From assembly GCA_023266845.1 (NCBI GenBank), contig JAHFPH010000004.1, positions 1-57,971 of the forward strand: DNA of 57,971 nt, written 5' to 3'. Shown piece after piece: positions 1 through 19,437 of this stretch. A program made the position numbers and the translations under genes. The stretch is from Rhodospirillaceae bacterium. Its GTDB lineage: Bacteria; Pseudomonadota; Alphaproteobacteria; JAEULC01. The notes below the pieces were generated by a model. That model saw nothing but the letters and a program-made list of their open reading frames with translations, was not told the origin of the DNA and did no database searches. Positions within the stretch are counted from its first letter, which is position 1, and each line of letters starts with the position of its first letter.

Positions 1-1194
1 GCCTGGATAGCCGGCCGCCGTGAGCAGCGCCTTCGCCTTGGCGATGTCCTGCTTCATGAAGGTCAGCTTGGCGTATTCGGGATGCGCGGGCGCCACGTGA
101 TGGTGCTCGCCCGGCTTGCCGAGGCCGCGATAGGCCGACTTCAGAACCGCCTCGGTGTCGGTGGCGTAACGCAGCGCCTGTCGCACCCGCTTGTCGTCGA
201 ACGGCTTGACCGAGTGCACGCGGGCGACGGCGGTGTAGCCCGTGTCGACCGAGTTGACCTGCACGTGCGCCAGCTTCTCGACCGTCGGCAGGGTCGAGAT
301 CGCACCCTGGTAGATCATGTCGACCTGCTTGGAGGCGAGCGCCGAGACTTGCGCCGCCGGGTCGTCGCCCAAATCGATGATCTCGTACCGGTCGACCCAC
401 GGGCCCTTGTCCCAATAGCCGCCCTTGCGCGCGACATAGAGCGAGCGCTTGCCCACTTCGTGCTCGGCCAGCTCGTACGCGCCGGTGCCGTTGCTGCCGA
501 CGCCGAACTTTCCATTCTCGGCCGGGTCGGCAATCATCAGCGGATAATGGAACAGCGATTCGGGGATCGACAGGTTGGCGCTCTGGCCGTTCAGCACGAC
601 GGTAAAGTCGTCCTTCTTCTGAATGGCGCTGGCGTCCCACAGCTTGGTGGATTTCTTCGCGTTGCCCTTGTCGTCCTTCTCGCCAGTCTCATACTCGGTC
701 AGAATGAAGCCTTTCAACAGGCCAACCACGGACGAGCCGGTCTTGGCGTCGAGCACGCGGTTCAGGTTCCACACCGCGTCGTCGGCGGTGAATTGCCGCC
801 CGCTGCGCCACTTCACGTCCTTGCGCAGATTCAGCGTCCAAGTCTTGAGGTCCGGCGAAGCGGTCCATTTCTCGACCAGCGACGGGCGGGTGACGTTGTC
901 GATGCCCGTGACGGTCAGGTAGTCGAGCGTCTGGCGAGCCGAGTTCGCGGCCTCGATCCAGGAATAGGTGTGCGGGCTGGTGATGTCGTGCACGCGCATG
1001 CCGAGCTTCATCGTGCCGCCCTTTTTCGGCGTGCCTTGCGCCGCGGCGGGCGCGGGCAGGCCGACCATCGCATAGGCGCTGGCTGCCGACACGCCCACGA
1101 GCGTGGCGGTGCGCAGGAAATCGCGCCGGCTGAGCTTGCCCTCGGCGAACTCGCGCCCGGCGTGCTGAATGACGGGATGTTCCCTGTTCGACAT
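1..1194 (-). CDS. Peptide/opine/nickel (DppA/OppA family 5) ABC substrate-binding protein with Tat signal; 3' end runs off the left edge
   Basis: Not in the ORF track because it has no stop in the window. Manual translation from ATG 1194 (GGGGAG RBS upstream): MSNREHPVIQHAGREFAEGKLSRRDFLRTATLVG...PKKGGTMKLG...WTLNLRKDVKWRSGRQFTADDAVWNL...KPFDDKRVRQALRYA...AKAKALLTAAGYPG, open to base 1. Confidence 0.9.
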   Translation of the reverse strand, partial: MSNREHPVIQHAGREFAEGKLSRRDFLRTATLVGVSAASAYAMVGLPAPAAAQGTPKKGGTMKLGMRVHDITSPHTYSWIEAANSARQTLDYLTVTGIDNVTRPSLVEKWTASPDLKTWTLNLRKDVKWRSGRQFTADDAVWNLNRVLDAKTGSSVVGLLKGFILTEYETGEKDDKGNAKKSTKLWDASAIQKKDDFTVVLNGQSANLSIPESLFHYPLMIADPAENGKFGVGSNGTGAYELAEHEVGKRSLYVARKGGYWDKGPWVDRYEIIDLGDDPAAQVSALASKQVDMIYQGAISTLPTVEKLAHVQVNSVDTGYTAVARVHSVKPFDDKRVRQALRYATDTEAVLKSAYRGLGKPGEHHHVAPAHPEYAKLTFMKQDIAKAKALLTAAGYPG

Positions 1195-1385
1195 CGATTT
1201 CTCCCCCGGATTGCCTGGTGATTGCCGCGGCTGCGAGCCAAGCGCCAATACCCCATGGCGCGGGACGCGGCCGTCCGATACGGCAAGGATAGTCCAGCGC
1301 GGCCGGAGTCCACAAGCCGCGCTGACCACCGGGCGCGCCTAATCGGTTGGCCGGTTGGCGCAAATCCGCCGCCAAGCGTCGCGGG

Positions 1386-1417
1386 TTGACATCAAGCGGC
1401 GAAAGCAGCGCAATTAT
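1386..1417 (+). promoter_or_regulatory. Possible sigma70 promoter for the oxygenase-DMGDH operon
   Basis: Perfect TTGACA at 1386-1391 followed by an AT-rich GCGCAATTAT patch; the -10 match is weak. Confidence 0.3.
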
Positions 1418-1431
1418 GTACCAAAGCCGCC

Positions 1432-2481
1432 TTGCGCAACCCGGCAGTCAGGCAAGCCTTGATCCCTTCGATCGACATCGCCCCCCTGTTCGACCTGGCC
1501 TCGCCCGCCCGCGCGGAAACCGACAACCGCGTCATGCGGGCGGCCGAAACGTCGGGCTTCATGGCCGTGACTGGACTTCCGGCCGAGGTGCCGCACGGGC
1601 CCAAGGTGCACGCGGCGCTGCTGCGGCTTTTCGGCTTACCCGAGAACGAGAAGCGCAAGCTTTATCGCCGCAAATTCGACCCGGCGCGGCCGAACGTCTA
1701 TCGCGGCTGGTTCCCGCTGCAGAATGGCGGATCAACCTATAAAGAAGGCATCGACATGGGCCCGGACATCGCGGGCCAAGGCCCCGCCGCCGATCCCGCC
1801 GATCCGCTGACCGAAATGACGCCGCTGCCCGATGAAGCGGCGTTGCCGGGCTGGCGCCCGGCGGCGGCGGCTTACTATCGCGGCATGGAACTGACCGGCC
1901 GGACGTTGATGCGCTCGATCGCGCGTGGCTTGGGCTTGGCCGAGGAATTCTTCGATCCGTATTTCAAGAACGGCATTTCCACCCTGCGGCTGATCCGCTA
2001 TCCGGTGCGCCCGCCGGAATCGTTCGCGGGCGCGGATGAAAGCGCGATCTACGTGACGCACCGGGGCAAGCGTCGTCATCTTATCGGCGGAGCGCATGTC
2101 GATTCCGGCTTCGTCACGCTGCTGGCGCAGGACGGGGTGGAAGGATTGCAGGCGCGCGGCGCGGGCAAGGAATGGATCGACGTGCCGCCGATCGAAGGCA
2201 GCCTGGCGGTGAATTTCGGCGGGCTGTTGGAGCGCTGGACCGGCGGGCGCATCAAGGCCACAGAACACCGCGTGATCGGGCACGAACGCGAGCGCCGCTC
2301 GATACCGTTCTTCTATGAGCCGCGCGTCGACGCGCGCGTCGAACCTCTGCCCATCAAGGGCGCGGCGCGGTTCCAGCCGTTCCTCTATGGCGATCACCTG
2401 TGGGCGGCGATGACCAAGTTCATCGAGTTCAGGGGCCTTGAGGTCCTGCGCCCGCCCAAGGGCAAGCAAGCCGCGGAGTGA
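1432..2481 (+). CDS. Isopenicillin N synthase-family Fe(II)/2-oxoglutarate dioxygenase
   Basis: N-terminal IPSIDIAPL, YRGWFP, LRLIRYP, HxD (GAHVDSGFVTLL), distal His (ATEHRV) and RxS (RRSIPFF). TTG start uncertain. Confidence 0.88.
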   Translation: MRNPAVRQALIPSIDIAPLFDLASPARAETDNRVMRAAETSGFMAVTGLPAEVPHGPKVHAALLRLFGLPENEKRKLYRRKFDPARPNVYRGWFPLQNGGSTYKEGIDMGPDIAGQGPAADPADPLTEMTPLPDEAALPGWRPAAAAYYRGMELTGRTLMRSIARGLGLAEEFFDPYFKNGISTLRLIRYPVRPPESFAGADESAIYVTHRGKRRHLIGGAHVDSGFVTLLAQDGVEGLQARGAGKEWIDVPPIEGSLAVNFGGLLERWTGGRIKATEHRVIGHERERRSIPFFYEPRVDARVEPLPIKGAARFQPFLYGDHLWAAMTKFIEFRGLEVLRPPKGKQAAE

Positions 2482-4934
2482 AAAAACCAGACATGAAAAC
2501 GCATGCGCGCGTGGCGGTGATCGGCGGCGGCGTGGTGGGATGCTCGGTGCTGTACCACCTGGCCAAGGCGGGATGGCGCGACCTCGTCTTGATCGAGCGT
2601 TTGGAACTTACCTCGGGTTCGTCCTGGCACGCGGCCGGCGGGTTCCACACGCTGAACGGCGACCCCAACGTCGCCAAGCTGCAGAGCTATACGGTCAATC
2701 TCTACAAGGAGATCGAGGCGCTGTCGGGCCAGTCCTGCGGCGTGCACCTGACCGGCGGCATGATGCTGGCCGGCACGCCCGAGCGCATGGATTTCCTGAA
2801 GCTGGCGCACGCCAAGGGGCGGTATCTCGGCATGCAGACCGAGATCATCAGCGCCGCCGAGGCCAGAAAACTGCTGCCGCTGATCGAGGACAAATACTTC
2901 ATCGGCGCCATGATCGATCCGCTGGAAGGACACCTTGACCCCTCGGGCACCACGCACGCCTATGCCGGCGCGGCGCGCAAGCTGGGCGCCGAGATCTATC
3001 GCCAGACGCGCGTGATCGAAACCAACCCGCTGAAGGACGGCGGATGGGGCGTGGTGACCGACAAGGGCACGATCCGGGCCGACCACGTGGTCAACGCCGG
3101 GGGTTTATGGGCGCGCGAGGTCGGCCGCATGGCCGGGCTGGAACTGCCCGTGCTGGCGATGGAGCATCACTACATCGTCACCGGCGAGATGCCCGAGGTG
3201 GTGGAGATCAACAAAAGCACCGGCAAGGAAGCGCTGCACGTCATCGATTTCGAGGGCGAAATCTATTTGCGGCAGGAAGCCAAGGGCATCCTGATGGGCA
3301 CCTATGAGAAAAAGGCGACACCCTGGTCGCCCGAGGCGACGCCCTGGAGCTTCGGACCGGAGCTGCTGCAAGAGGACATGGACCGCATCGCGCCCAGCCT
3401 GGAGGTGGGCTTCAGGCATTTCCCGGCGATCGGACGCGCCGGCATCAAGCGCGTGGTCAACGGGCCGTTCACCTTCACGCCGGACGGCAATCCGCTGGTT
3501 GGGCCCGTACGCGGCCTGAAGAATTATTGGTGCGCCTGCGGCGTGATGGCCGGATTCAGCCAGGGCGGCGGCGTGGGGTTGGCGCTGACCAATTGGATGA
3601 CCGAGGGCGATCCGGGCTTCGACGTGTGGGGCATGGACGTGTCGCGCTACGGCGACTGGACCACGCCCGCCTATACCAACGCCAAGGTACGCGAGAATTA
3701 TTCGCGGCGCTTCCGCATCCGTTTTCCGAACGAGGAGCTGCCCGCCGCGCGCGCCTTACGCACCGTGCCGGCGCACGACCAGCTAAAGCGCGAGAACGCG
3801 GTGTTCGGCGTGTCCTATGGGCTGGAATATCCGCTGTGGTACGCGCCCAAGGGAACCAAGCCCGAGGAGACCATCACCTATCGCCGCTCGAATGCGTTCG
3901 CGCCCGTGGCGGCGGAATGCCGGGCGGTGCGCGAGCGCGTGGGTCTGGCGGAGATATCGACCTATGGCCGCTACGAGGTCACGGGCCCGGACGCGGCGCT
4001 GTTCCTGGAGCGCGTGCTGACCAACCGCATGCCCGAAGCGGGCCGGATGGCGCTGGCGCCGATGCTGAACGCGCAAGGGCGCTTGATCGGCGATTTCACC
4101 GTGGCGCGGCTCGGAGCCCAGGGGGCCGCCCCCGAGCGGTTCTTCATCGTCGGCTCGGGCATCGCCGAGGAGTATCACCTGCGCTGGTGGGAACAGCAGC
4201 GCGCCGGCATGGCGGTTGCGATCCGCGCCATGTCGCGCGCCCTGTCGGGCTTTTCCATCGCGGGACCCAAATCGCGCGCGATGCTGGCGACGCTGGTGCG
4301 CGACGACGTATCGAACGCCGCCTTTCCGTTCCTCTCGGTGCGCGAGATGGCGGTGGGGCTGGTGCCCTCACTGGTCGCGCGGGTCAGCTTCACCGGCGAG
4401 CTGGGCTACGAGATCTGGTGCGCGCCCGATCTGCACAAGGCCCTCTACGACACGCTGCGTGAATCGGGGCGCGAGCACGGCATGGCGATGTTCGGGTCGC
4501 AGGCGCTCAATTCCATGCGCCTGGAAAAAGCCTTCGGTTCCTGGGCGCGCGAGTACCGCCCGATCTACGGGCCGGAGGAGGCCCGGCTCGGCAGGTTCGT
4601 CCGTTTCGAGAAGAACGACTTCATCGGCCGCGACGCGGCAGCCGCGGAGCGCAAAACGGGCGGCGAGCGGCGGCTTTGCCTGTTCGACGTAGCGGCCAAG
4701 GATGCCGACGCGTTCGGCGATGAGCCGATCTGGCACGACGGCAAGGTGGTGGGCTGGGTGACCTCGGGCGGCTACGGCCACGCGACCGGAAAGTCGCTGG
4801 CCCTGGGTTACGTGCCCAAGGCCCTGGCCGACGCCAGGCAGGAATTCGAAATCGAGATCATCGGCGAGCGCCGCCCCGCGCGCCTCTTGCCCCAAGCGCC
4901 GCACGACCCCAAGGGCGAACGGATGCGGAGTTAG
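2478..4934 (+). CDS. Dimethylglycine/sarcosine dehydrogenase-like FAD oxidoreductase with GcvT folate-binding domain (copy 1)
   Basis: GGGVVG Rossmann motif, ELTSGSSWHAAGG (covalent-FAD His), NGPFTFTPDGNPLVGP, RVSFTGELGYEI, MRLEK, VTSGGYGH. Start is GTG 2478 or ATG 2493. Confidence 0.92.
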   Translation: MKKPDMKTHARVAVIGGGVVGCSVLYHLAKAGWRDLVLIERLELTSGSSWHAAGGFHTLNGDPNVAKLQSYTVNLYKEIEALSGQSCGVHLTGGMMLAGTPERMDFLKLAHAKGRYLGMQTEIISAAEARKLLPLIEDKYFIGAMIDPLEGHLDPSGTTHAYAGAARKLGAEIYRQTRVIETNPLKDGGWGVVTDKGTIRADHVVNAGGLWAREVGRMAGLELPVLAMEHHYIVTGEMPEVVEINKSTGKEALHVIDFEGEIYLRQEAKGILMGTYEKKATPWSPEATPWSFGPELLQEDMDRIAPSLEVGFRHFPAIGRAGIKRVVNGPFTFTPDGNPLVGPVRGLKNYWCACGVMAGFSQGGGVGLALTNWMTEGDPGFDVWGMDVSRYGDWTTPAYTNAKVRENYSRRFRIRFPNEELPAARALRTVPAHDQLKRENAVFGVSYGLEYPLWYAPKGTKPEETITYRRSNAFAPVAAECRAVRERVGLAEISTYGRYEVTGPDAALFLERVLTNRMPEAGRMALAPMLNAQGRLIGDFTVARLGAQGAAPERFFIVGSGIAEEYHLRWWEQQRAGMAVAIRAMSRALSGFSIAGPKSRAMLATLVRDDVSNAAFPFLSVREMAVGLVPSLVARVSFTGELGYEIWCAPDLHKALYDTLRESGREHGMAMFGSQALNSMRLEKAFGSWAREYRPIYGPEEARLGRFVRFEKNDFIGRDAAAAERKTGGERRLCLFDVAAKDADAFGDEPIWHDGKVVGWVTSGGYGHATGKSLALGYVPKALADARQEFEIEIIGERRPARLLPQAPHDPKGERMRS

Positions 4935-4944
4935 TTTACGGCCG

Positions 4945-5039
4945 CATCCTTCGAGACGGCTGCTGCGCAGCCTCCTCAGGATGACGGTTCATTTTGCGTC
5001 ACCCTGAGGAGCGGGCGACAGCGAGCGTCTCGAAGGGCG
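4945..5039. repeat. REP/RIME-like imperfect inverted-repeat pair between convergent genes
   Basis: CATCCTTCGAGACG...CTCCTCAGGATGACG (4945-4986) is inverted relative to CGTCACCCTGAGGAG...CGTCTCGAAGGGCG (4997-5039). Confidence 0.75.
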
Positions 5040-5044
5040 ACGCT

Positions 5045-6628
5045 CTACAAAATCCCCCGCTTCGCTATCTCTTCCTTGCGCTTGGCCACAAAAGCGTCGA
5101 TCGCCTCCTTGCGGCCCGGATCGAGCGGCGGCTCGACATAGGATTCCAGCAGGCGCTTCCACACCGTGTTGGCGCGCTGCGTGGCCGTGAGGGCGCCGGC
5201 CTCGGCCCAGGACTGGAAATTGCGCCAGTCCGAGATCATCGGCCGGTAGAACGCCTTTTCGTAGCGCGCCATGGTGTGCGCCGCGCCGAAGAAATGCCCG
5301 CCGGGCTGCACCTCCTTCAAGGCCTCGAAAGCCAGCGCGTCGTCGCTCAGGTCCATCGGGTCGAGCCAGGCGCGCATCTGGTGGATCATCTCGGCGTCGA
5401 CGATCGATTTCTCGAACGAGGCTACCAGCCCGCCCTCGAGCCACCCCGTGCCGTGATGCATGAAGCTGGTATGCGACATGACGCAGGCCCAAATCGACAT
5501 GGCCGATTCATAGGTCGACTGCGCGTCCACGCAGTTCGACGCGTTCACGTTGCTGGAGCGGTACGGCAGGCCCCAGCGCCGCGCGATCTGGCCGCCGATG
5601 ATCGTGGCGCGCACGTATTCCGGCGTGCCGAAGGCCGGCGCGCCCGATTTCATGTCGACGTTCGAGGTGAAGCCGCCGAACACCATCGGGATGCCGGGCT
5701 TGAGCAACTGGATCAGCACCATCACCGCCAGCGCCTCGGCCGTCTGCTGCGCCAAGGCGCCCGCGACCGTCACCGGGCTCATCGCGCCCGCCAGCGTGAA
5801 GGGCGTGACGATGCAGGGCTGGCCGTGCTGGGTCATCTCGATCAGCCCGGCGACCAGCTCCTTGTCCACGCGGCGCGGCGAGTTGACGTTGATGACGGTC
5901 AAAAGGCTGGGTTCGGCCGCGAGCTGCTCCTTCGACACGCCGCGCGCCGCGCACGCGATCTCGATCGCGTCTGAAATACGCTCGCGCCCAATGGCGCGCG
6001 CCATGAAGGCGCGGTCGGAATAGACGGAGTGCGCGCGATAGAGATCGAGATGGCGCGACTCCGGCGGCAGGTCCAATGCCTCGACCGGCGTGCCGCCGGA
6101 ATGATGCACGCAGGTCAGGCTCTGGTGCAGCTTGATCAGGTTGCACTGGTCCTCGAACGCGCCGGGCCGCCGCCCGCGGTCGAGGTCGGACACGTTGGGC
6201 GGGCTGCCGACCGGGCCCACGTTGATCGTGTTGTCGCCGAGCGTGATGCTGCGCTCGGGATTGCGCGCGTGGATTTTGAACCGGCGCGGCGCCTGGCGCA
6301 CGATCTCGCGCACCATCGCGCGCTCGAAGCGCACCAGGCGCGTCGCACGGTCGACCTTGCAGCCCGCTTTTTCGAAAATGTCGAGCGCCGGGTCGCTCAA
6401 GAATTCGACGCCGAGTTCCTCGAGCACGCGCAAGGCCGTATCGTCCAGGCGGCCGAGGCCCTCCTCGTCCAGCAATTCCAGGGGCGGCATCGGATTGCGG
6501 ATCGGCGCCCAGGGCGGCTGCGGTACGCCCGAGCTTTGCTCGGTCTTGCGCCGCGCGCGGCGTTCGCCGGCGCCGCGCTCGGACGCGGCGCGCCCGTGCA
6601 CGGCTCCAGGCGTGATGGGTGCCGTCAT
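5045..6628 (-). CDS. Trimethylamine methyltransferase (MttB) superfamily protein, non-pyrrolysine (copy 1)
   Basis: INVNSPRR, TPFTLAGAMSPVTVAGALAQ, GGFTSNVDMKSGAPAFGTPEY, GWLEGGLVASFEK, PGGHFFG; no internal amber codon. Confidence 0.92.
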   Translation of the reverse strand: MTAPITPGAVHGRAASERGAGERRARRKTEQSSGVPQPPWAPIRNPMPPLELLDEEGLGRLDDTALRVLEELGVEFLSDPALDIFEKAGCKVDRATRLVRFERAMVREIVRQAPRRFKIHARNPERSITLGDNTINVGPVGSPPNVSDLDRGRRPGAFEDQCNLIKLHQSLTCVHHSGGTPVEALDLPPESRHLDLYRAHSVYSDRAFMARAIGRERISDAIEIACAARGVSKEQLAAEPSLLTVINVNSPRRVDKELVAGLIEMTQHGQPCIVTPFTLAGAMSPVTVAGALAQQTAEALAVMVLIQLLKPGIPMVFGGFTSNVDMKSGAPAFGTPEYVRATIIGGQIARRWGLPYRSSNVNASNCVDAQSTYESAMSIWACVMSHTSFMHHGTGWLEGGLVASFEKSIVDAEMIHQMRAWLDPMDLSDDALAFEALKEVQPGGHFFGAAHTMARYEKAFYRPMISDWRNFQSWAEAGALTATQRANTVWKRLLESYVEPPLDPGRKEAIDAFVAKRKEEIAKRGIL

Positions 6629-6632
6629 GGGG

Positions 6633-7877
6633 CTAAACCTCCTCCCACGGGAAACTGTCCAAGCGCTCGGCGCCTTTGGCCGTGATCACGGCCTGCGTTT
6701 CCAGCTTCACGCATTCGCGCCCGCCCACCTCGCCGATCAGGCTTTCCACGCACACCACCATGTTCTCTTCCAGCCGCCCTTCGCTCGCGCGCGCGAAATC
6801 GGGATGCAGCGGCAGCGAGGGGAATTCATCGCACATCCCCACGCCGTGGAACACGCAGGAGTATTTGCGCGCCTGGTAGCGTTCGGGAATCCGCCAGGTC
6901 TTGTCGTTGTATTCGCGGAACGTCAGGCCCGGCTTTAGCGCCGCCAGGTTGTGGTTGATCTGGTCCAACGCCGCCGAGTAAAGCGCGCGCTGCGTGTTGC
7001 TCATGCGGGTGTGCCCGACGGTCCAGGCGCGCGAAATGTCGGCGCAATAGCCATAGGGCCCGATCAGGTCGGTGTCGAAGGCCAACATGTCGCCCTCCTG
7101 GCATACATAGTCCGAGCATTCCTGGAACCAGGGATTGGTGCGCGGGCCCGCGGCCAAAAGGCGCGTCTCCAGCCATTCGCCACCCGAGCGGATGTTTTCG
7201 TAGTGGAGTTCCGCCCATACTTCCTGCTCGGTCTTGCCGGGCAGCGAGTTCTCGTACATCCGCGCCATGCCGGCTTCGCAGACCTTCACGGTCCATCGCA
7301 TGAGTTGGAGCTCTTCCGGGCTCTTGATGCAGCGCGCGTGCTCGGTCAGCTCCTGGCCCTCGACGATGGTTAGGCCGCGCTTGCGCAGCGCGTCCACCCC
7401 CGCCGGCTCCATCTTGTCGACGGCCAGGCGCATATTGCCGCCGCCATGCTGGCGCACCACGTCGGCGATCTCGTCGGCCCATTTCTCCAGCCGTTCCTGC
7501 ATCCTTGTGCCAGCCGCGAAATAGAACCAGCTCGTCGCCGTGCGGACCTCGTCGATGATCTCGATTCCCTTGGCGACGTGCTCGGACCCGCGATACTCGA
7601 AGTCGATCGCCGGCCCCTCGGCGCAGACCAAGGCATAGTGCGACGCGTTGTGCGTCATCCACAGCTGCATGTTGCAGGCGTCGAGCGCGTAGCGGATGTT
7701 GACCGGGTCATAGAGTAGGATCGCCGCGCAGTCGTGCTTCTTCAGTTGCGCGCGGATGCGGCCCTGGCGGTAGGCGCGCGCCTTCTTCAGCACGTCAAGG
7801 GGTATCGGGCTTTTGAGGCCCTTGCCCGTGGTGTTCAGGTATTCCTTCTTGCGTGGATCCTTGAAGACATCGGCCAT
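6633..7877 (-). CDS. M24 (Xaa-Pro peptidase fold) metalloenzyme, DMSP lyase DddP-like
   Basis: DPVNIRYA, NMQLW, GGEWLETRLLAAGPRTNPWFQEC, FDTDLIGPYGYCADISR, KYSCVFHGVGMCDE, CVE, KLE resemble my recollection of DddP motifs. Confidence 0.8.
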   Translation of the reverse strand: MADVFKDPRKKEYLNTTGKGLKSPIPLDVLKKARAYRQGRIRAQLKKHDCAAILLYDPVNIRYALDACNMQLWMTHNASHYALVCAEGPAIDFEYRGSEHVAKGIEIIDEVRTATSWFYFAAGTRMQERLEKWADEIADVVRQHGGGNMRLAVDKMEPAGVDALRKRGLTIVEGQELTEHARCIKSPEELQLMRWTVKVCEAGMARMYENSLPGKTEQEVWAELHYENIRSGGEWLETRLLAAGPRTNPWFQECSDYVCQEGDMLAFDTDLIGPYGYCADISRAWTVGHTRMSNTQRALYSAALDQINHNLAALKPGLTFREYNDKTWRIPERYQARKYSCVFHGVGMCDEFPSLPLHPDFARASEGRLEENMVVCVESLIGEVGGRECVKLETQAVITAKGAERLDSFPWEEV

Positions 7878-11714: not shown

Positions 11715-11745
11715 GCTCTCCTCCCCTGGCTCTAGTTTGCCCGGG

Positions 11746-11774: not shown

Positions 11775-11806
11775 CGAACCGTCATGGCGCGTTCTGGCTC
11801 CGGCTT

Positions 11807-11879: not shown

Positions 11880-11896
11880 CAAATATCTCCCCTCCG

Positions 11897-14311
11897 CTAG
11901 CCGCGTTGCCTGCCGCCGTTCGCGTCGAACAGGGGCGTCAGGTGCACGCGCGCCGCGCGCTCCTCGCCCAGTATGTCGATTTTCAGCTCCTCTCCGTCCC
12001 TGGCGTATTCCGGCTTCACATAGCCCATGGCGATGCTCTTTTGCGCCCAATGCGCGAAGCCGCCGGACGTCACCTGCCCCACCGCCTTGCCGTCCTTGAG
12101 GATCGCCTCGTAACCCACGACGTCGGCGCCGTTGGCGTCGACGATCATCTTGACCAGCTTGCGCTGCGGTTCCTTACCGCGTTCGGCCAGGGCCGCCGCG
12201 CGGCCGACGAAATCGGATTTGTCGTAGCCGACGAAGCGGTCGAGCCCCGCTTCCACGGGGGTGTAGTCTGGGCGGAATTCACGGAAGAACGCGCCATAAT
12301 CTTTTTCTAGGCGGAGCGACATCAGCGCGCGGTTGCCGAAATGCCTGAGGTCGAGATCCCTGCCCGCTTCGACCAGGCTGTCGTAAAGCGCGACCTGGTA
12401 ATCCGGCGTAATCCAGATTTCGTAGCCCAGATCGCCGGTATAGCTCGCGCGCAGCACGATGGCGGGGCATATTCCCACCGCCATCTCGCGCGCGGCGAAG
12501 AACTTGAACTTGTCGTTCGACAGGTCCTCGCGCACCAGTTTCTGCAACAGCTCGCGCGATTTCGGTCCCGCGACCATGAAGCCGTTCATGGCGCTGCACA
12601 GGCTGCGCAAGGCCACGCCCGCGGGCGGAAGCTGCTTGTCGAACCAGCGCATGTGATAGACCTCGGCCACGCCCGAGCCGATCATGTAGAAACGCTCCGG
12701 GCCGAGTCGCGCCACGGTGAAATCGCCGATGATCCGCGCGCGTTCGTTCAGCATCGGCGCCAGGATCATGCGCCCGGGCTTGGGCATCTTGTTGGCAAGC
12801 AGCTTGTTGAGCCATTCCTCGGCGCCCGGGCCTTCGATCGAATATTTGGCAAAGCCGGAGATGTCCATGATGCCGACGGCGTTGCGTACCGCGTTGCATT
12901 CCTCGCGCACAACGGCGAAGGCGTTGGAGCGGCGATAGGTGGGAGTCTCCATCGGCTCGACGCCCTTGGGCGCGTACCACAGCGGCACCTCCAGGCCGAA
13001 GCTGGCACCGAACACCGCGCCCATCGCTTTCAACCGGTCGTATGACGGCGCGCGGCGCAGGGGACGCGCGGCGGTGAGTTCCTCGTTCGGGAAGGTGAGC
13101 CTGAAGCGGCGCTTGTAATTTTCCTGCACCTTCATATGCGTGTATTTGCGCGTGGCGAAGCTGCCGAAGCGCGACACGTCCATCGCGAACACATCGGAGC
13201 CGGGATCGCCCTCGACCATCCAGCGCGAGAGCGCCAGGCCCACGCCGCCGCCTTGCGCGAAGCCGGCCATCACGCCGCAGGCCGACCAGAAATTGCGCAA
13301 GCCCCTGACCGGCCCGACCAGCGGGTTGCCGTCCGGCGCGAAGGTGAACGGGCCGTTGACGATGCGCTTCATGCCCGCGCGCCCCACGGCCGGGAAATGC
13401 GCGAAGCCAAGCTCGAGCGACGGGGCGATGCGGTCCAGATCGTGCGGCAGCAGCTCCATCGAGAAATCGTCCGGCGTCTTGTCGGGCGACCAGGGCACGC
13501 ATGCCTGTTCATAAGTACCCAAGAGGACGCCCTTGCCTTCCTGGCGCATGTAGATCTCGCCGGTGAAATCCTGCGTTGCAAGCACTTCTTTGCCGTGGTT
13601 GGCGACCTCGGGGATTTCCTCGGTGACGATGTAGTGATGCTCCATCGCCAGCACCGGCAGCTCGATGCCCGCCATGTGGCCGATTTCGCGCGCCCACAGG
13701 CCCGCGGCGTTCACCACATGCTCGGCGTGCCAGTCGCCCTTGTCGGTCGAGACCAGCCAGCTTCCATCGGCGTTTTGGGTCAGCGATTTCACGGCGGTGA
13801 AGCGGTGCACCTGCGCCCCGCCCAGGCGCGCGGCCTTGGCATAGGCTTGCGTGACGCCCGAGGGATCGACATGCCCGCCGTCGCCGCGCCACAGCGCGCC
13901 CACGAAATGCTGCGGCTCGATCAGCGGGTTATATTTTTTCGCCTCCGTCAGCGAGATCATCTCGGTCTCGAATCCCAGATAGCGCGAGCGCGAGCGCACC
14001 AGCTTGATGAAGTCCAGGTGCTCTTGCGTGCTGGCGAGCATCAGCCCGCCGGTCAGGTGGATGCCGCAGGATTGGCCGGTGATCTGTTCCAGCTCGCGAT
14101 ACAGGTCGATGGTGTATTTCTGCAGGCGCGACACGTTGGCGTCGCTGTTCAGCGTGTGGATGCCGCCCGCCGCGTGCCAGGTGGAGCCGGAGGTAAGCTC
14201 GGACTTCTCCAGCAGCACCGCGTCCTTCCAACCAAGCTTGGTCAGGTGGTACAGCGCGCTGCATCCCACCACCCCGCCGCCAATCACCACCACCCGCGTT
14301 TTCGTTGCCAT
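11897..14311 (-). CDS. Dimethylglycine/sarcosine dehydrogenase-like FAD oxidoreductase with GcvT domain (copy 2)
   Basis: GGGVVG, ELTSGSTWHAAGG, NGPFTFAPDGNPLVGP, SYTGDLGYEI, LRLEK, VTSGGFAH. Confidence 0.92.
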   Translation of the reverse strand: MATKTRVVVIGGGVVGCSALYHLTKLGWKDAVLLEKSELTSGSTWHAAGGIHTLNSDANVSRLQKYTIDLYRELEQITGQSCGIHLTGGLMLASTQEHLDFIKLVRSRSRYLGFETEMISLTEAKKYNPLIEPQHFVGALWRGDGGHVDPSGVTQAYAKAARLGGAQVHRFTAVKSLTQNADGSWLVSTDKGDWHAEHVVNAAGLWAREIGHMAGIELPVLAMEHHYIVTEEIPEVANHGKEVLATQDFTGEIYMRQEGKGVLLGTYEQACVPWSPDKTPDDFSMELLPHDLDRIAPSLELGFAHFPAVGRAGMKRIVNGPFTFAPDGNPLVGPVRGLRNFWSACGVMAGFAQGGGVGLALSRWMVEGDPGSDVFAMDVSRFGSFATRKYTHMKVQENYKRRFRLTFPNEELTAARPLRRAPSYDRLKAMGAVFGASFGLEVPLWYAPKGVEPMETPTYRRSNAFAVVREECNAVRNAVGIMDISGFAKYSIEGPGAEEWLNKLLANKMPKPGRMILAPMLNERARIIGDFTVARLGPERFYMIGSGVAEVYHMRWFDKQLPPAGVALRSLCSAMNGFMVAGPKSRELLQKLVREDLSNDKFKFFAAREMAVGICPAIVLRASYTGDLGYEIWITPDYQVALYDSLVEAGRDLDLRHFGNRALMSLRLEKDYGAFFREFRPDYTPVEAGLDRFVGYDKSDFVGRAAALAERGKEPQRKLVKMIVDANGADVVGYEAILKDGKAVGQVTSGGFAHWAQKSIAMGYVKPEYARDGEELKIDILGEERAARVHLTPLFDANGGRQRG

Positions 14312-14345
14312 TGCCTTGACGATCCCCTGGAGCGGACGCGCCGCG

Positions 14346-14951
14346 TTATTCGATGACGTAGCCGAATTCGCCGGCCGATTTCAGCAGCCATTCGGTGAAG
14401 CTCCCGGCGAAACTCGACGGCAGGACAAGATCGAAGCTCGGCGCGTCGTCCGCTTGCGCCAAAACGACGTTGACATGCGCTATAGGCGTCACGGCGGCGC
14501 TTCCCGGCTTGAACACGCGGGCATTGAGATCGACGCGGCAGCCCTTGGCCAGCGCAGCGCGCGCATGGCGGCCCGAAACGCGCAGCACCGCCTTGCCGCC
14601 GGTCTGGTCGACCAGCGAGGCGGCGATGCCGGCCGCTTCGTGGCAGGCCTTGTCGACCTTGCGCATCAGCGCGTCCACTTCGCGCCACGGCTCGAGCAGC
14701 AGCCACGCGCCGGGTTGAATCCAAATCGCCGCCAGCTCGCCCGTGGTCGTCGCCCGCCCGGGCGGCGGCAATTCCAGGCCCAGGCCGCTGCGGATCGCCG
14801 TGGCGACGTCGCCTTCGCGGCCCTTGCGCGCCTGAAGCTGGACGACCGCCACCCGCCGTTCGCGGATCGACACGGGATGATCGCCGCCCGCGCCGTGCCG
14901 CCCGCGCGGCATGGCGTGCGCCAGGACCGAGCGCGGCTCAGGCGCGGACAC
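14346..14951 (-). CDS. soxG: Sarcosine oxidase gamma subunit
   Basis: WIQPGAWLL, LVDQTGG, LAKGCRVDL, SFAGSFTEWL; last gene of the soxBDAG order. Confidence 0.85.
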   Translation of the reverse strand: MSAPEPRSVLAHAMPRGRHGAGGDHPVSIRERRVAVVQLQARKGREGDVATAIRSGLGLELPPPGRATTTGELAAIWIQPGAWLLLEPWREVDALMRKVDKACHEAAGIAASLVDQTGGKAVLRVSGRHARAALAKGCRVDLNARVFKPGSAAVTPIAHVNVVLAQADDAPSFDLVLPSSFAGSFTEWLLKSAGEFGYVIE

Positions 14952-17898
14952 GCGCGTTCTCCGGGTCGATATGGTGCGGGCTGGTGATCTCGACCTCGAC
15001 CGTCTCGTTCTTCAGCGGATAGGCGGCGTACAGGCGCTTGCCCTTGTCGTCGGGCCCGCGCTTCAGCATGGCGAGGCCGATCCAGTTTTCCAGCTCGACC
15101 GAGCGCGTGACGCTGGTGACCCAACCCAAACTGTCGATCGAGTCGCGCGATGCCACGAGATGCGCGCCGCCGCGCAGGCGTTTTTCGAAACTGGGATCGA
15201 CCGCGCGGATGCCGACCAGGCGCGGCCGGCGGGAATCGGTCAGGCCCGGGCGCTCGGCAAGAACGCGGCCGATATAGTCGCCCTGTTTTTTCAGCATTTT
15301 TTCCATGCCCAGGTCGCGCGCCGTGGTCTGGCCATTCAGCTCCGGTCCCGCGACGTGGCCCTTTTCGACGCGCAGCAGGCTCAGCGCCTCGAGCCCGTAG
15401 GGCAGAATGCCGAACGCCGCGCCGGCCTCGATGATCGCGCGCCACACGCGCTCGCCGTATCCCGCGGGCGTCGCGATCTCGTAGGCCAGCTCGCCCGAGA
15501 AGCTGACGCGGAATACGCGCACCGGACAGCCATCCACCTCGCCCGCCCCGATGGCCATGAACGGAAACGCCGAATTGGACAGATCGAGCCCCGCGACGCA
15601 ATTCAGCAGCGTGTCGCGCGCACGCGGCCCCGCGACCGACATTTGCACCCACTGGTCGGTGACGGTCGAGAACTGCGCGTCGAGCTCGGGCCAGGCGACC
15701 TGCGCGTGGTATTCCATGTGCTCGAGCACCTCGGCGGCCTTGGCCGTGGTGGTGGTCATCAGATAATGCTGCTCGCCCAGGCGCGAAGTGGTGCCGTCGT
15801 CGAACACCATGCCGTCCTCGCGCAGCATCAATCCGTACCGCGCCTTGCCGACCGGCAGCGTGGAGAAGGTGTTGGTGTAAAGGCGGTCGAGGAACACGGC
15901 GGCGTCCGGCCCTTGCACGTCGATCTTGCCGAGGGTCGAGACGTCGCAAATGCCGACGGCCCGGCGTACGGCGCGTGCCTCGCGCAAGATCGGTTCCCAT
16001 CCGGTTTCGCCGGTGGTCGTGTAGTAGAGCGGCCGCAGCCACAGCCCGGTCTCAAGGAACACGCCGCCGCGGCGCAAATGCCATTGATGCATCGGGGTGC
16101 GGCGCGTCGGCACCAGATGCTTGCCGACCTCGCGTCCCGCCACCGCGCCCCAGGTAACGGGCGTGACATAAGGCCGATAGGTCGGCAGGCCGACCTTCTC
16201 GATGGAGTCGCCGCGCGCCGCGGCCAGCACCGCCACGCCGACGATGCCGCCGGTCTTGCCCTGATCGGTCGCCATGGTGTGGGTGGTGTAGCGCTTGGCG
16301 TGTTCGACATGCTCATAGCCTTCCTGATGCGCCAGGCGGATATCGGCTGATGTCACGTCGTTCTGCAGATCGACGAAGCTTTTCCCGCCATTCATTCCCG
16401 GCCCGCGCACTTCCCAGAACGGCTCAAGCGACGTGTGATGCGCGTCGTCCGGCGCGGGCAACGCGAACCCGGCGGCGGATTTGAATCCCGTCGCTTCCGC
16501 GGCCGCCGCGCCAGCCTCGGCTCCGTCGCGCGCCGCCGCCGCTATGCCGAACACGCCGCGCGCCGCGCCGGCCGAGCGTTCGGCCTGCACCGGCTTGCCC
16601 GGCAGGAAAGCGGCGAGCTCGCGCGACCAGATCAGCGGCGCGCGGGTATGGCTGGCGAGGTGCACGGCGGGATCGTGCCCGCCCGACACGCACAGCAGGT
16701 CGCATTCCAGCGAACTCACGCCACTGCCGTCGCGCTTGCGGACCGTGACGCCCCTCACGCTCTTGCCGCCTTGCACATCGACGATTTCGCAACCGAGGCT
16801 TAAAGGGATGCCGAGATGGTGCGCCGCGACGGCTTTCGCGGTTTCGGCGCGCACGTCGACGATCGCGGCCACGTCGATGCCCGCCTGTTTGAGCGCGAAA
16901 GCGGCATAATAGGCCCAGTCGTTGTTGACGAAGAACGCGGCCCGGCTACCCGGCGCGACGCCGAAACGCCGCACATAGGTCTCCGCCGCCGAGGCCAGCA
17001 TCACGCCCGGCTTGTCGTTGCCGGGGAAGGCGATCAGGCGCTCGGTCGCGCCGGTGGCGAGCACCACCTGCTTGGCGCGGATGGTCCAGAATCGCTGCCG
17101 CACCTTATAGGGTGGCGGCTCGGCCAGGTGGTCGCCGACGCGCTCGACCGCGCCCAGCACGTTATGCTCGTAGAAACCGACCACCGTCATGCGCGGCAAA
17201 AGTTTCACATCAGACATCGCCGCCAGCGTCAGCACCATCTCGGTGCGCCAGGCCTCGCGCGCCGGGTCGAGCAACAGGCCGCCGCCCAGCTCGAAATCCT
17301 GCTCGGCCAAAATCACCCGCGCACCCGAAGCGGCCGCGGCGCGGGCGGCCGCCAGTCCCGCCGCGCCCGAGCCCACCACCAGCACGTCGCAATGCGCGTG
17401 CATCGATTCGTATTCGTCGGGATCGGGCTCGGCGGCCGCGCGGCCCAGGCCGGCGGCACGGCGGATCAGCGGCTCGTAGACTTTCTCCCAGAACGCGGCT
17501 GGCCACATGAAGGTCTTGTAGTAGAACCCCGCGGGCAGGAACCGCGACAGGCGGGAATTGATCGCGGCGATGTCGAACTCGAGCGAGGGAAAGCGGTTCT
17601 GGCTCTTGGCTTCCAGCCCGTCGAACAGCTCGGCCACGGTGGCGCGCGTGTTCGGCTCGCGCCGCGCGCCCAAGCGCAATTCGACCAGCGCGCTCGGCTC
17701 TTCCGGTCCGGCGGTCAGCGCGCCGCGCGGACGGTGATACTTGAAGCTGCGGCCCATCAGCCGCACGCCGTTGGCGAGCAAGGCCGAGGCCAGCGTATCG
17801 CCGGGATGGCCCTCGAAGCTTTGGCCGTCGAAGCGGAATTCGATGCGGCGCGTGCGGTCGACGCGGCCGCCGGATGACAGGCGCATGGGCTGGGTCAT
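14938..17898 (-). CDS. soxA: Sarcosine oxidase alpha subunit
   Basis: GDTLASALLANGV, RSFKYHRPRG, GFYYKTFMWP, KSFVDLQNDVT, KRYTTHTMATDQGK, DVSTLGKIDVQG; ATG 17898 overlaps the soxD stop (ATGA). Confidence 0.95.
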   Translation of the reverse strand: MTQPMRLSSGGRVDRTRRIEFRFDGQSFEGHPGDTLASALLANGVRLMGRSFKYHRPRGALTAGPEEPSALVELRLGARREPNTRATVAELFDGLEAKSQNRFPSLEFDIAAINSRLSRFLPAGFYYKTFMWPAAFWEKVYEPLIRRAAGLGRAAAEPDPDEYESMHAHCDVLVVGSGAAGLAAARAAAASGARVILAEQDFELGGGLLLDPAREAWRTEMVLTLAAMSDVKLLPRMTVVGFYEHNVLGAVERVGDHLAEPPPYKVRQRFWTIRAKQVVLATGATERLIAFPGNDKPGVMLASAAETYVRRFGVAPGSRAAFFVNNDWAYYAAFALKQAGIDVAAIVDVRAETAKAVAAHHLGIPLSLGCEIVDVQGGKSVRGVTVRKRDGSGVSSLECDLLCVSGGHDPAVHLASHTRAPLIWSRELAAFLPGKPVQAERSAGAARGVFGIAAAARDGAEAGAAAAEATGFKSAAGFALPAPDDAHHTSLEPFWEVRGPGMNGGKSFVDLQNDVTSADIRLAHQEGYEHVEHAKRYTTHTMATDQGKTGGIVGVAVLAAARGDSIEKVGLPTYRPYVTPVTWGAVAGREVGKHLVPTRRTPMHQWHLRRGGVFLETGLWLRPLYYTTTGETGWEPILREARAVRRAVGICDVSTLGKIDVQGPDAAVFLDRLYTNTFSTLPVGKARYGLMLREDGMVFDDGTTSRLGEQHYLMTTTTAKAAEVLEHMEYHAQVAWPELDAQFSTVTDQWVQMSVAGPRARDTLLNCVAGLDLSNSAFPFMAIGAGEVDGCPVRVFRVSFSGELAYEIATPAGYGERVWRAIIEAGAAFGILPYGLEALSLLRVEKGHVAGPELNGQTTARDLGMEKMLKKQGDYIGRVLAERPGLTDSRRPRLVGIRAVDPSFEKRLRGGAHLVASRDSIDSLGWVTSVTRSVELENWIGLAMLKRGPDDKGKRLYAAYPLKNETVEVEITSPHHIDPENARVRA

Positions 17899-18167
17899 CG
17901 CGGCTTCTCTATTTTGTCCTGCGCCTTGCTCACGGCCTTGATTTCGTGCGTTGCGGTGTTGCGCAGCACCTTGATCCATTGCCGGCAGCCCGAAACGTGG
18001 TGCCACCACTCGATATGCCAGCCCATCGGATTGTCGCGCGTGTAGACGTAGTCGTAGAACACCTCGGCTTCGGCGCCAGGAGCCGGGCGTAAGACCGTCG
18101 CGTCGCCGCGATAGTGGAATTCGATCTCGTCGCGCGCGCCGCAGAACGGGCAGGAAATGCGATGCAT
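17895..18167 (-). CDS. soxD: Sarcosine oxidase delta subunit
   Basis: ISCPFCGARDEIEFHYRG...YVYTRDNP...WWHHVSGCRQW zinc motif; start trimmed to ATG 18167. Confidence 0.93.
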   Translation of the reverse strand: MHRISCPFCGARDEIEFHYRGDATVLRPAPGAEAEVFYDYVYTRDNPMGWHIEWWHHVSGCRQWIKVLRNTATHEIKAVSKAQDKIEKPR

Positions 18168-18177
18168 GCCAGCGGCC

Positions 18178-19437
18178 CTAGTGTAGCCAGGGGAAGGGCC
18201 CGGCGCCCTTTTCATCGATCGTGCGGCCCTGGCGGAACCGCTCGATGGTCATGGCGGCGTTCAATTCGTGCGGCGCGTCCTTGGCGATGGTGTGGGCGAA
18301 GCACCAGCCCGAGCCTGGCGTGGCCTTGAACCCGCCATAGCACCAGCCGCCGTTGAGATAGAGGCCTTCGACCGGCGTTTTGCAGATCAAGGGCGAGCCG
18401 TCGAAGGTCATGTCCATCACGCCGGCCCATTGCCGCAGCACGCGCACGCGCGACAGCGCCGGAATCAGCGCCACGCCTTCGGTCCATACGTGCTCGACGG
18501 TCGGCAGATTGCCGCGCCGTGCGTAGGAGTTGTAGCCGTCGAGCCCGCCGCCGAAGACGAGGCCCCCTTTGTCGGACTGGCTCATATAGAAGTGGCCGGC
18601 GCCGAACGTGACCACGCCGTCGATCAGCGGCTTCAACCCTTCGCTGACGAAGGCCTGCAGGATGTGGCTTTCGACCGGCAGACGCAGGCCCGCCATCGAA
18701 GCGACATGCGAGGTGTGGCCCGCCACGGCGATGCCGATTTTCTTGGCGGCGATATAGCCGCGCGTGGTCTCCACGCCCACCACCCAGCCCCGGGTCATGC
18801 GGATGCTCGTGACCTCGCAATTCTGGATGATGTCGACGCCGTATTTGTCGGCGCCGCGCGCGAATCCCCAGGCTACCGCGTCGTGCCGCGCCGTGCCGCC
18901 GCGCTTCTGCAACAGGCCGCCATAGATCGGGAACCGCGCGTTGTCGAAATCGAGGATCGGCACCAGGCGCCGAACCTGCTCGCGGTCCAGCAGCTCAGCA
19001 TCGATACCGTTGAGCCGCATCGAATTGCCGCGCCGCGCGTACTGGTCGCGCTGGCTGTCGGAATGGAACAGGTTCAGCACGCCGCGCTGGCTCATCATCA
19101 CGTTGAAGTTCAGGTCCTGCTCCAGCCCTTCCCACAACTGCAGCGACTTCTCGTAGAAGCGGTTGTTCTGGGGATAAAGGTAGTTTGAACGCACGATCGT
19201 GGTATTGCGGCCCGTGTTGCCAAGGCCGATCGCACCGCGCTCCAGCACCGCGACATTGGCGATGCCGTGCTCCTTGGCCAAGTAATAGGCGGAGGCGAGC
19301 CCGTGCCCGCCGCCGCCGATAATGACGACGTCGTAGGCGGGCTTTGGCGCCGGATCGCGCCATGCGCGACCCCAGCCACGATGGCCGCCCAGGCCCTCGG
19401 CCAGAAGCCGGAAGGCGGAATATCTGCCGCTAGCCAA
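18178..19437 (-). CDS. soxB: Sarcosine oxidase beta subunit
   Basis: GGGGHGLASAYYLAK, GNTGRNTTIVRSNY, GTARHDAVAWG, HILQAFVSE, GWCYGGFKATPGSG; TTG start. Confidence 0.95.
   Translation of the reverse strand: MASGRYSAFRLLAEGLGGHRGWGRAWRDPAPKPAYDVVIIGGGGHGLASAYYLAKEHGIANVAVLERGAIGLGNTGRNTTIVRSNYLYPQNNRFYEKSLQLWEGLEQDLNFNVMMSQRGVLNLFHSDSQRDQYARRGNSMRLNGIDAELLDREQVRRLVPILDFDNARFPIYGGLLQKRGGTARHDAVAWGFARGADKYGVDIIQNCEVTSIRMTRGWVVGVETTRGYIAAKKIGIAVAGHTSHVASMAGLRLPVESHILQAFVSEGLKPLIDGVVTFGAGHFYMSQSDKGGLVFGGGLDGYNSYARRGNLPTVEHVWTEGVALIPALSRVRVLRQWAGVMDMTFDGSPLICKTPVEGLYLNGGWCYGGFKATPGSGWCFAHTIAKDAPHELNAAMTIERFRQGRTIDEKGAGPFPWLH

Follow-up and report, generated by a model that had tools for sequence, protein, structure and literature searches.

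We analysed a window of 57,971 nucleotides from a Rhodospirillaceae bacterium (GCA_023266845.1, JAHFPH010000004.1), which is contig C129 of a draft genome of 3.46 Mb in 200 contigs and 94.7% completeness. Its first 19,437 nucleotides carry an island of genes for the removal of methyl groups, including two MttB-family methyltransferases (MttB1 and MttB2), together with a DddP-family metalloenzyme, an enolase-superfamily enzyme, an oxygenase and part of an importer. With moderate confidence, we suggest that the cell uses this island to degrade at least one imported quaternary ammonium compound that bears a carboxylate, either instead of glycine betaine or besides it.

The genes were called from a list of open reading frames (ORFs) and from profile searches with Pfam and NCBIfam, which placed them exactly where an earlier sequence-only reading of this DNA had listed them. 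At the contig start, which cuts it, lies the gene of a family-5 (Dpp/Opp-type) periplasmic solute-binding protein with a Tat signal (1-1194, minus strand; SBP_bac_5, 182 bits), whose translation has the twin-arginine motif SRRDFL. A long plus-strand frame at 1-1221 has no Pfam match; the binding protein is the product of the minus strand. On the plus strand follows an Fe(II)/2-oxoglutarate (2OG) oxygenase of the IPNS/ACCO-like DIOX type (1432-2481; 2OG-FeII_Oxy 67 bits, DIOX_N 35 bits), whose gene overlaps by 4 bases that of DMGDH1 (2478-4934, plus strand), the first of two flavoproteins of the dimethylglycine dehydrogenase (DMGDH) family with the Pfam domains DAO, FAO_M, GCV_T and GCV_T_C. 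Three minus-strand genes come next, encoding MttB1 (5045-6628; PF06253, 643.5 bits), a DddP-family M24 metalloenzyme (6633-7877; Peptidase_M24 and Creatinase_N), called M24 below, and an enolase-superfamily enzyme, probably of the mandelate-racemase type (7888-9021; MR_MLE_C 198 bits, and MR_MLE_N). The MttB2 gene is divergent from the enolase gene (9065-10630, plus strand; PF06253, 684.9 bits; longest ORF from 8996). The remaining genes are on the minus strand: a frameshifted alpha/beta-hydrolase gene of the PRK06489 family (10637-11774), lying between MttB2 and DMGDH2; DMGDH2 (11897-14311), with the same four Pfam domains as DMGDH1; and genes of the sarcosine oxidase gamma family (soxG, 14346-14951; SoxG 51 bits, TIGR01375 89.5 against a cut-off of 144), alpha family (soxA, 14938-18009; TIGR01372 1323 against 1164, with Pfam domains), delta family (soxD, 17895-18215; SoxD 106 bits, TIGR01374 109.4 against 116.5) and beta family (soxB, 18178-19437; TIGR01373 703.5 against 529). 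For this heterotetrameric sarcosine oxidase, soxB and soxA exceed the NCBIfam cut-offs; soxD and soxG fall below those, but above the Pfam cut-offs.

Both MttBs are full-length on the PF06253 profile (positions 2-500) and intact, and they are 51% identical to each other. Neither has the in-frame stop of a pyrrolysine codon, and with 275 and 297 bits against the pyrrolysine MttB model TIGR02369 (cut-off 525) they are not pyrrolysine trimethylamine methyltransferases. In the glycine betaine site of Desulfitobacterium hafniense MtgB, Tyr97 and Phe356 make cation-pi contacts and Arg312 and His348 contact the carboxylate; Arg312 is retained in MttB enzymes for other acidic quaternary amines but the aromatic pair is not (PMC13080624). 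We read these positions from alignments to 2qne (chain index = residue + 16). Arg312 and His348 are kept in all 38 aligned MttB rows, including MttB1, MttB2 and a third MttB of the genome (MttB3, contig C79). Tyr97 is retained by MttB3 and replaced by Gly in MttB1 and in 12 of its 12 orthologues (at least 79% identity), MttB2 itself has Ala there, and among its orthologues (at least 84% identity) the position holds Ala in six of seven and Gly in one. Phe356 is Gly in MttB1, MttB2, MttB3, 4yyc and all proteobacterial copies examined; since these include the MtgB-like MttB3 and 4yyc, only the Tyr97 difference discriminates. Scores against PDB 4yyc and MtgB 2qne are, respectively, 794 and 411 bits for MttB3, 413 and 343 for MttB2, and 401 and 313 for MttB1. 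A quick maximum-likelihood tree, with labels assigned by best BLAST match, sets the MttB3 group apart from MttB1 and MttB2 (SH-aLRT 100). From these comparisons, MttB3 is likely the glycine betaine enzyme of the genome, and we read MttB1 and MttB2 as enzymes that would bind carboxylated quaternary amines in a roomier pocket.

The flavoproteins DMGDH1 and DMGDH2 are 59% identical and score nearly equally against solved enzymes (605 bits to mammalian 4pab for the former and 572 bits to human 5l46 for the latter). The genome has six DMGDH-family paralogues, of which the four further ones are 37-42% identical to DMGDH2. These four and a second sox cluster (67% DNA identity) lie on contigs C114, C29, C62, C122 and C14. 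DMGDH1 and DMGDH2 may act on dimethylglycine, sarcosine or some other N-methyl amine. Judging by these families, the capacity for N-methyl oxidation is highly multiplied in this genome.

The M24 protein has its best family match in NCBIfam DddP (NF043017; 425.8 bits, below the equivalog cut-off of 600) and aligns over 387 residues to the solved DddPs with 333-342 bits (342 to RlDddP, 4rzy). Aligned with 4rzy and 4b28, it retains all six metal ligands (Asp295, Asp297, Asp307, His371, Glu406 and Glu421) as well as Tyr366 and Asp377, residues that PMC4108388 names for DddP, and Trp95 is conserved within an NMQLW motif. Across 75 family rows spanning 37-100% identity, in which four contigs occur twice, Asp295, Asp297, Asp307, His371, Glu406 and Tyr366 are invariant (75 of 75), Asp377 is present in 74 and Glu421 in 73. 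Being nearly invariant across the family, these residues indicate chemistry, not substrate. As described in PMC5395565, DddP has an Asp in place of the substrate-binding His of M24 peptidases, shows no Val-Pro peptidase activity and has a Km of 14-17 mM for dimethylsulfoniopropionate (DMSP). The active site thus predicts for M24 a metal-assisted alpha-deprotonation with beta-elimination, not peptide hydrolysis. Creatinase is not known to carry the metal ligands of M24 enzymes; we rejected it as an identity for this protein, which has all of them and finds no chain so named among 24 PDB matches (E up to 1e-5). Two further copies deserve mention. On contig C71, within 2455-9084 (locus L030), a second DddP-family paralogue of the same genome, 46% identical, stands directly upstream of its own family-5 ABC importer and has Gly for the catalytic Asp377, the only such row among the 75. 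An orthologue of 67% identity (G306:C136:11058-12302; L020, 9553-10806) has one in-frame TAG, and its ORF call is split in two.

The enolase has its closest solved relatives in galactonate and talarate dehydratases (E about 1e-35). Its motifs KIR, VDCN, EEP, GGE, QPD and PHAWG are present in eight of eight orthologues and are compatible with the three acidic metal ligands and the Asp-His dyad, with a single Lys, of the mandelate-racemase subgroup; in the KxK motif, Arg takes the place of the second Lys. HpbD uses two catalytic Lys, Lys164 and Lys266, on opposite faces (PMC3950512). An HpbD-type racemase was considered and rejected, because the second of these is missing: QPDV stands 24 residues after GGE, the third metal ligand, followed by PHAWG, with no Lys at the strand-6 position (all read directly off the sequence and the eight orthologues rather than from an alignment to HpbD). 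The enolase repeatedly travels with an alcohol dehydrogenase (ADH), be it Fe-ADH, Zn-ADH or Ldh_2, and is likeliest a hydroxy-acid dehydratase or hydratase. The 2OG oxygenase has H222-x-D224, H279 and R288-x-S290 in 11 of 11 orthologues, which gives it an intact iron triad (HxD...H) and 2-oxoglutarate site (RxS), and its best solved relative is 9ovh (E = 4.5e-40). Probably co-transcribed with DMGDH1, it could take off the last N-methyl group or hydroxylate the skeleton.

The linkage of these genes is conserved. In a DNA search of 30 relatives, the island is near-intact only in one genome of the same genus, where one contig holds the genes from the binding protein to the enolase and a second one holds MttB2-DMGDH2-soxG (81-90%); in the closest relative (L015), DMGDH2 stands directly beside MttB2. 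A protein search of 401 sampled genomes of the class found M24 relatives (E up to 1e-60) in 76, only 10 of which, source genome included, have an M24 of at least 66% identity. A scan of a species-representative collection gave 60 loci, all labelled metagenome-assembled genomes (MAGs), with such an M24 in 41. Partners were counted in the 20 loci whose M24 reaches at least 66% identity and whose flanks measure 8 kb or more on each side, where a match meant at least 40% identity and at least 40% coverage to the query proteins. An ABC importer was found in 14 of them, DMGDH in 12, MttB and MtgC in 11 each, DUF1638 in 10, RACo in nine, MtgE and Fe-ADH in seven each, enolase, 2OG oxygenase and sox in six each, and an MFS gene in five.

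A complete layout, with its extra genes checked by Pfam, occurs in six of the 20 loci (L032, L034, L037, L039, L040 and L088), all from uncultured Alphaproteobacteria, and partially on shorter contigs. It runs soxA-soxG, MttB2, Fe-ADH-enolase, RACo, MtgE-M24-MtgC-DUF1638-MttB1, DMGDH1-2OG oxygenase, and family-5 binding protein-permeases; the window island is this layout minus the corrinoid genes and Fe-ADH, plus DMGDH2 beside soxG. A second layout (L035, L043, L061, L062, L063 and L089) has a DMGDH2-like gene and M24 without enolase and 2OG oxygenase, with the same importer where the contig reaches; L035, L061, L062 and L089 add a distant MttB1-like gene, MtgC or both. In a third, found in MAGs labelled Hyphomicrobiaceae, M24 stands with the importer and the MFS gene, and a Rieske oxygenase, an FMO-like enzyme, an enoyl-CoA hydratase and an SDR take the place of MttB. 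More distant M24s (37-65% identity) are beside MttB in six of 18 loci and beside DMGDH in five of 18. One gammaproteobacterial locus reads GMC oxidoreductase-SnoaL-MttB-DMGDH-M24-aldose epimerase-Zn-ADH-enolase. A plasmid (NZ_CP091854.1) of the cultured Terrarubrum flagellatum 7MK25 carries soxBDAG-DMGDH-DUF1289-bmt-MttB-enolase-M24 on one strand (M24 69% identical), and plasmids of Rhizobium leguminosarum have a Rieske oxygenase-reductase-M24 operon (M24 61%) with a GlxA-type regulator, formaldehyde detoxification genes, an electron-transfer flavoprotein (ETF), an NADH:flavin oxidoreductase and a proline/glycine betaine ABC system as neighbours. On one of these plasmids (R. leguminosarum WSM1689, NZ_CP007046.1, 240332-265570; L091), where M24 is the third gene of the operon, the same 25 kb contain two small genes annotated as DMSP-lyase family around the ETF genes and the NADH:flavin oxidoreductase, which means that three DMSP-lyase-like genes surround betaine-type demethylases in a soil bacterium.

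Since the gene set recurs in relatives and in other lineages, its clustering is more than chance. The conservation of the neighbourhood that the sequence-only reading had called for is therefore there, and so is the company that M24, enolase and 2OG oxygenase, its accessory enzymes, keep with the methyl-removing genes. Its idea of a duplicated pathway fared less well: at 51% identity for the MttBs and 59% for the DMGDHs, these are old paralogues kept as a set across lineages, not a recent local doubling.

MttB-family enzymes methylate a corrinoid protein, and they also need an activase and a methyl acceptor. We found no corrinoid protein, activase or pterin methyltransferase in the island. The only small stand-alone corrinoid protein of the genome (MtgC; B12-binding and B12-binding_2) is on contig C154; after it come DUF1638, an MTHFR-domain protein, a methyl-tetrahydrofolate (methyl-THF):corrinoid methyltransferase (PRK07535, 366 bits, cut-off 259) and an activase of the RACo type. 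A separate homocysteine methyltransferase (MtgE, S-methyl_trans) is on contig C23 and a classical MetH on C50. The copies that lie inside the island at a related locus (L017) are 79% identical to the C154 MtgC, 51% to its DUF1638, 60% to its RACo and 58% to the MtgE of C23. The part list of the MtgBCD(E) system is thus complete in the genome, with the helpers in trans here and in cis in relatives. The sequence-only description of an N-demethylation island was right about the methyl-removing genes, but it missed the corrinoid protein, activase and methyl acceptor, which are absent from this island and inside it in relatives.

Because the islands of relatives hold MtgC, DUF1638, RACo and a homocysteine methyltransferase, the island is a variant of the aerobic cobalamin-dependent MtgBCD(E) system; by family, its methyl-transfer core is of the kind described in PMC12478193, which reported in 2025 the genetic proof in Ruegeria pomeroyi. 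In Phaeobacter inhibens, the roles of mtgB1 and mtgC were confirmed (bioRxiv 10.64898/2025.12.19.695462). Both sources noted several MttB paralogues per genome without known substrates, and the former proposed that the extra pfam06253 paralogues take other methylated compounds.

The importer continues beyond the contig. Window positions 1-120 are identical to C159 10951-11070, an exact 120-base overlap inside the binding-protein gene, and C159 carries the C-terminal part of the binding protein, two permeases, a fused Opp/Dpp-type ATPase and an MFS gene. The join between C159 and C129 is based on this overlap and on the identical gene order in relatives. The best solved relative of the binding protein, searched with the intact L017 orthologue, is DppE, which at only 105 bits is too distant to hint at the ligand. 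Farther along, C159 also encodes MocA-type and SDR oxidoreductases, a binding protein of the phosphonate type and a protein resembling fatty-acid desaturases.

The hydrolase gene is broken into at least three frames (signal peptide, 11595-11774; N-terminal part, 11298-11552; remainder, 10637-11458), and its C-terminal part scores 357 bits to PRK06489 against a cut-off of 305. In the closest relative, MttB2 and DMGDH2 are directly adjacent and the hydrolase gene is on another contig. No RNA run was found for window positions 1200-11000. One study, labelled groundwater metagenome, supplied four runs whose DNA contigs cover 30 of 30 bins of 1-19600, but since the assembly may itself derive from these runs, the covering contigs are not independent support. 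Single contigs connect MttB2 with the hydrolase remnant (9973-11340; 9942-10823) and that remnant with DMGDH2 (11424-12158). At 11298, where the hydrolase frame breaks, the contig of one run is a base short, which makes the break there either polymorphic or an assembly error. Two intergenic palindromic elements, at 4947-5037 (nested inverted repeats) and 11807-11877 (34-nt arms), look like REP-type repeats. Both recur at 77-89% identity on contigs C84, C63 and C54 and in a relative, and contig depth is 5-10 times higher in the bin with the second one (11807-11877).

No regulator gene was found inside the island, and an Rfam scan of 1-23500 (E up to 0.1) gave only two sub-threshold matches to microRNA models and no riboswitch. 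The rest of the window, searched from 19.4 to 46 kb, has no folate one-carbon genes and no island regulator, but other ABC systems and unrelated catabolic genes. The same part holds an AraC-type ORF of 138 residues with a helix-turn-helix only and without ligand domain (22595-23011, minus strand), between two ABC systems about 3 kb past soxB, and, at 30723-37863 on the plus strand, an M81/MlrC-type metallopeptidase gene followed by a second complete family-5 Dpp/Opp ABC importer. Amidohydrolase and 2-hydroxyacid dehydrogenase genes precede the metallopeptidase gene. The stretch 30723-37863 looks like a separate catabolic operon for peptides or peptide-like compounds.

How might the island work? 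The Dpp-type ABC importer would take up the compound, and MttB1 and MttB2 would each pass one N-methyl group to the shared MtgC encoded on C154. By analogy with the published system, the methyl group would go from MtgC to tetrahydrofolate via MtgD or to homocysteine via MtgE, and RACo and DUF1638 would cooperate to keep the cobalt reduced. Their families suggest that DMGDH1, DMGDH2, SoxBDAG and possibly the 2OG oxygenase could oxidise off the remaining N-methyl groups, yielding methylene-tetrahydrofolate or formaldehyde. The di-iron centre of M24 may then bind the carboxylate, abstract the alpha proton and eliminate the beta leaving group, and the enolase might hydrate or dehydrate the resulting acid. 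Canonical glycine betaine would most likely enter via MttB3 and share the dimethylglycine and sarcosine steps. As for the skeleton of the compound, our guess, a weak one, is the 3-onium-propionate type, with beta-alanine betaine or some conjugate of it as an example; it would fit the chemistry of DddP and the handling of acrylate by the enolase and alcohol dehydrogenase.

Several observations weigh against a substrate other than glycine betaine, or against parts of this scheme. The DMGDHs and SoxBDAG are exactly the downstream steps of glycine betaine. Phe356 is missing from all proteobacterial copies, which means that the clostridial motif transfers only in part, and the loss of Tyr97 may leave MttB1 and MttB2 able to use glycine betaine. 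The proposal of betaines other than glycine betaine, already made in the sequence-only reading, is partly supported by the loss of Tyr97 in the island MttBs and its retention in MttB3. The residues of M24 fail to separate the island clade from true DddP. Beta-elimination would free a tertiary amine, which should be unfit for a non-pyrrolysine MttB, so that M24 might act before or after the MttBs; a 3-onium-propionate skeleton leaves unexplained why the released amine would need a carboxylate-binding MttB. A literature search linking alanine betaine with acrylate, trimethylamine and lyase found nothing in print. We know of no family-5 binding protein that binds betaines. Among the 20 well-flanked loci, six have no ABC match, nine no MttB and 14 no enolase, and these absences imply that the enolase and the 2OG oxygenase are not obligatory partners. 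Finally, growth on glycine betaine raises two pfam06253 proteins of R. pomeroyi (PMC12478193) and three of the four mtgB genes of P. inhibens (bioRxiv 10.64898/2025.12.19.695462).

A rival explanation is plain catabolism of glycine betaine, including that derived from choline, with MttB1 and MttB2 as redundant paralogues that both use glycine betaine and with side roles or none for M24, enolase and 2OG oxygenase. DMGDH and SoxBDAG are the textbook later steps, and both DMGDHs score 570-605 bits against mammalian DMGDH; Arg312 and His348 are conserved; several paralogues of R. pomeroyi and P. inhibens respond to glycine betaine (PMC12478193; bioRxiv 10.64898/2025.12.19.695462); and the motif test is imperfect, as even the MtgB-like copy lacks Phe356. 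Yet, M24 stands inside an mtgE-mtgC-mttB operon in six complete and several partial loci and recurs beside MttB and DMGDH in distant lineages. Tyr97 is replaced by small residues across both clades in a genome with a separate MtgB-like copy, and the importer is of the Dpp type, not a betaine binder of the ProX/OpuAC type. We consider this explanation unlikely.

More speculatively, M24, the enolase and the two dedicated MttBs might form an undescribed pathway for beta-onium carboxylates, such as beta-alanine betaine or the head group of betaine lipids, with Dpp-type import. The DddP family would then have served ancestrally and mainly the catabolism of nitrogen-onium compounds (betaines) in soil and fresh water, and DMSP cleavage, with its millimolar Km, would be a marine offshoot. 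We put this forward as a speculation with a small chance of being right.

The target could also be proline betaine or hydroxyproline betaine, with MtpB-like MttBs, DMGDH-type enzymes that demethylate N-methylproline, an enolase that epimerises or dehydrates a (hydroxy)proline derivative, and a prolidase-fold M24 acting on a proline-type intermediate. This would fit the R. leguminosarum plasmid, where the Rieske-reductase-M24 genes lie downstream of a LysR gene with a P5C-reductase-like gene nearby, in a neighbourhood that resembles the Hpb cluster presented in PMC3950512, and it would fit the relative that pairs M24-DMGDH-MttB with enolase and Ldh_2-family genes. A weak match of the enolase to NCBIfam cis-3-hydroxy-L-proline dehydratase (72 bits, cut-off 500) also speaks for it. 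However, M24 carries the Asp of DddP instead of the peptidase His (PMC5395565), and the enolase lacks the second catalytic Lys of HpbD and appears to have Asp and His at the mandelate-racemase positions. Moreover, no putA or D-amino-acid oxidase was seen in the island, and SoxBDAG would have no obvious role. We consider a proline-type substrate quite improbable.

M24 could instead be a genuine DMSP or sulfonium lyase, with at least one MttB demethylating DMSP or a related sulfonium in a combined catabolism of sulfonium and betaine osmolytes. In its favour, all residues for DddP activity are present, M24 is about as close to the solved DddPs as the Aspergillus DddP, an active enzyme (50% to RdDddP, PMC4108388), and an enolase-type hydratase with an alcohol dehydrogenase could process acrylate. 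Against it, M24 stays under the NCBIfam DddP cut-off (426 bits against 600), a plasmid gene annotated dddP is only 42% identical, the constant partners are N-demethylating flavoproteins, and the carriers are, by their records, groundwater, lake and soil MAGs and rhizobia, from habitats where DMSP is scarce. We hold this to be the least probable of these explanations.

The catabolism of imported, carboxylated quaternary amines remains our preferred explanation. Quaternary amines are major osmolytes and sources of nitrogen and carbon. Not until 2025 was an aerobic route from glycine betaine that depends on B12 recognised, in work that also pointed to many extra MttB paralogues without known substrates. 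Two such paralogues now gain a defined and widely conserved context, with an importer, a putative lyase, a putative dehydratase and an oxygenase. In the literature that we searched, the conserved union of an MtgBCD(E) core with a DddP-type M24, an enolase, an Fe/2OG oxygenase and a Dpp-type importer does not appear, and a search for the association of M24 with MttB gave no printed description, supplements and subscription papers being outside its scope. So far, enzymes of the DddP type were known only for cleaving DMSP, with low affinity; here one lies inside nitrogen-demethylation operons of non-marine bacteria, which could change the view of the purpose of the DddP family and of the demand for B12 in groundwater and soil. 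Cultured carriers exist (Terrarubrum flagellatum 7MK25 and Rhizobium leguminosarum), so the question of the substrate is directly testable.

Among known systems, MtgBCD(E) of R. pomeroyi and P. inhibens shares with the island and its genome the non-pyrrolysine MttBs, one small corrinoid MtgC, DUF1638, the RamA/RACo activase, the pterin-binding MtgD and the homocysteine-binding MtgE, as well as nearby DMGDH and sox genes, which the main text of PMC12478193 describes for other bacteria, and several MttB paralogues per genome. Unlike it, the island MttBs are in clades apart from the MtgB-like copy and lack Tyr97, the corrinoid genes of the source genome are outside the island, and four further members join the set: a DddP-type M24, an enolase, an Fe/2OG oxygenase and an importer of the Dpp type; the main text of PMC12478193, to which this comparison is limited (supplements outside scope), does not mention peptidase, creatinase or DddP. 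With D. hafniense MtgB (2QNE/9YCE; PMC13080624) the island MttBs share the TIM-barrel MttB fold, at 313-343 bits, with Arg312 and His348 kept. The situation also resembles that of this enzyme and of MtpB, MtcB, MtyB and MthB of Eubacterium limosum, in that paralogues with differing quaternary amines would share one corrinoid protein. The island MttBs differ by the change of Tyr97 to Gly or Ala and of Phe356 to Gly, and by an aerobic-type host with MtgD and MtgE, not MtgA, as acceptors.

The solved DddPs (RdDddP, 4B28, and RlDddP, 4RZY; PMC4108388 and PMC5395565) have in common with M24 the six metal ligands, Tyr366, Asp377 and Trp95. In contrast to them, the island M24 is under the equivalog cut-off and is embedded in N-demethylation operons beside a Dpp-type importer, in carriers from groundwater, lakes, soil and root nodules. 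The main text of PMC3950512 does not mention an M24 gene in the Hpb system of Paracoccus denitrificans. This system is, like the island, a betaine cluster with an enolase-superfamily enzyme, two successive N-demethylases, a binding-protein importer and formaldehyde handling. However, its first demethylase is a Rieske oxygenase and its second an FMN/Fe-S enzyme, and HpbD has two Lys bases where the island enolase appears to have the Asp/His pattern of mandelate racemase.

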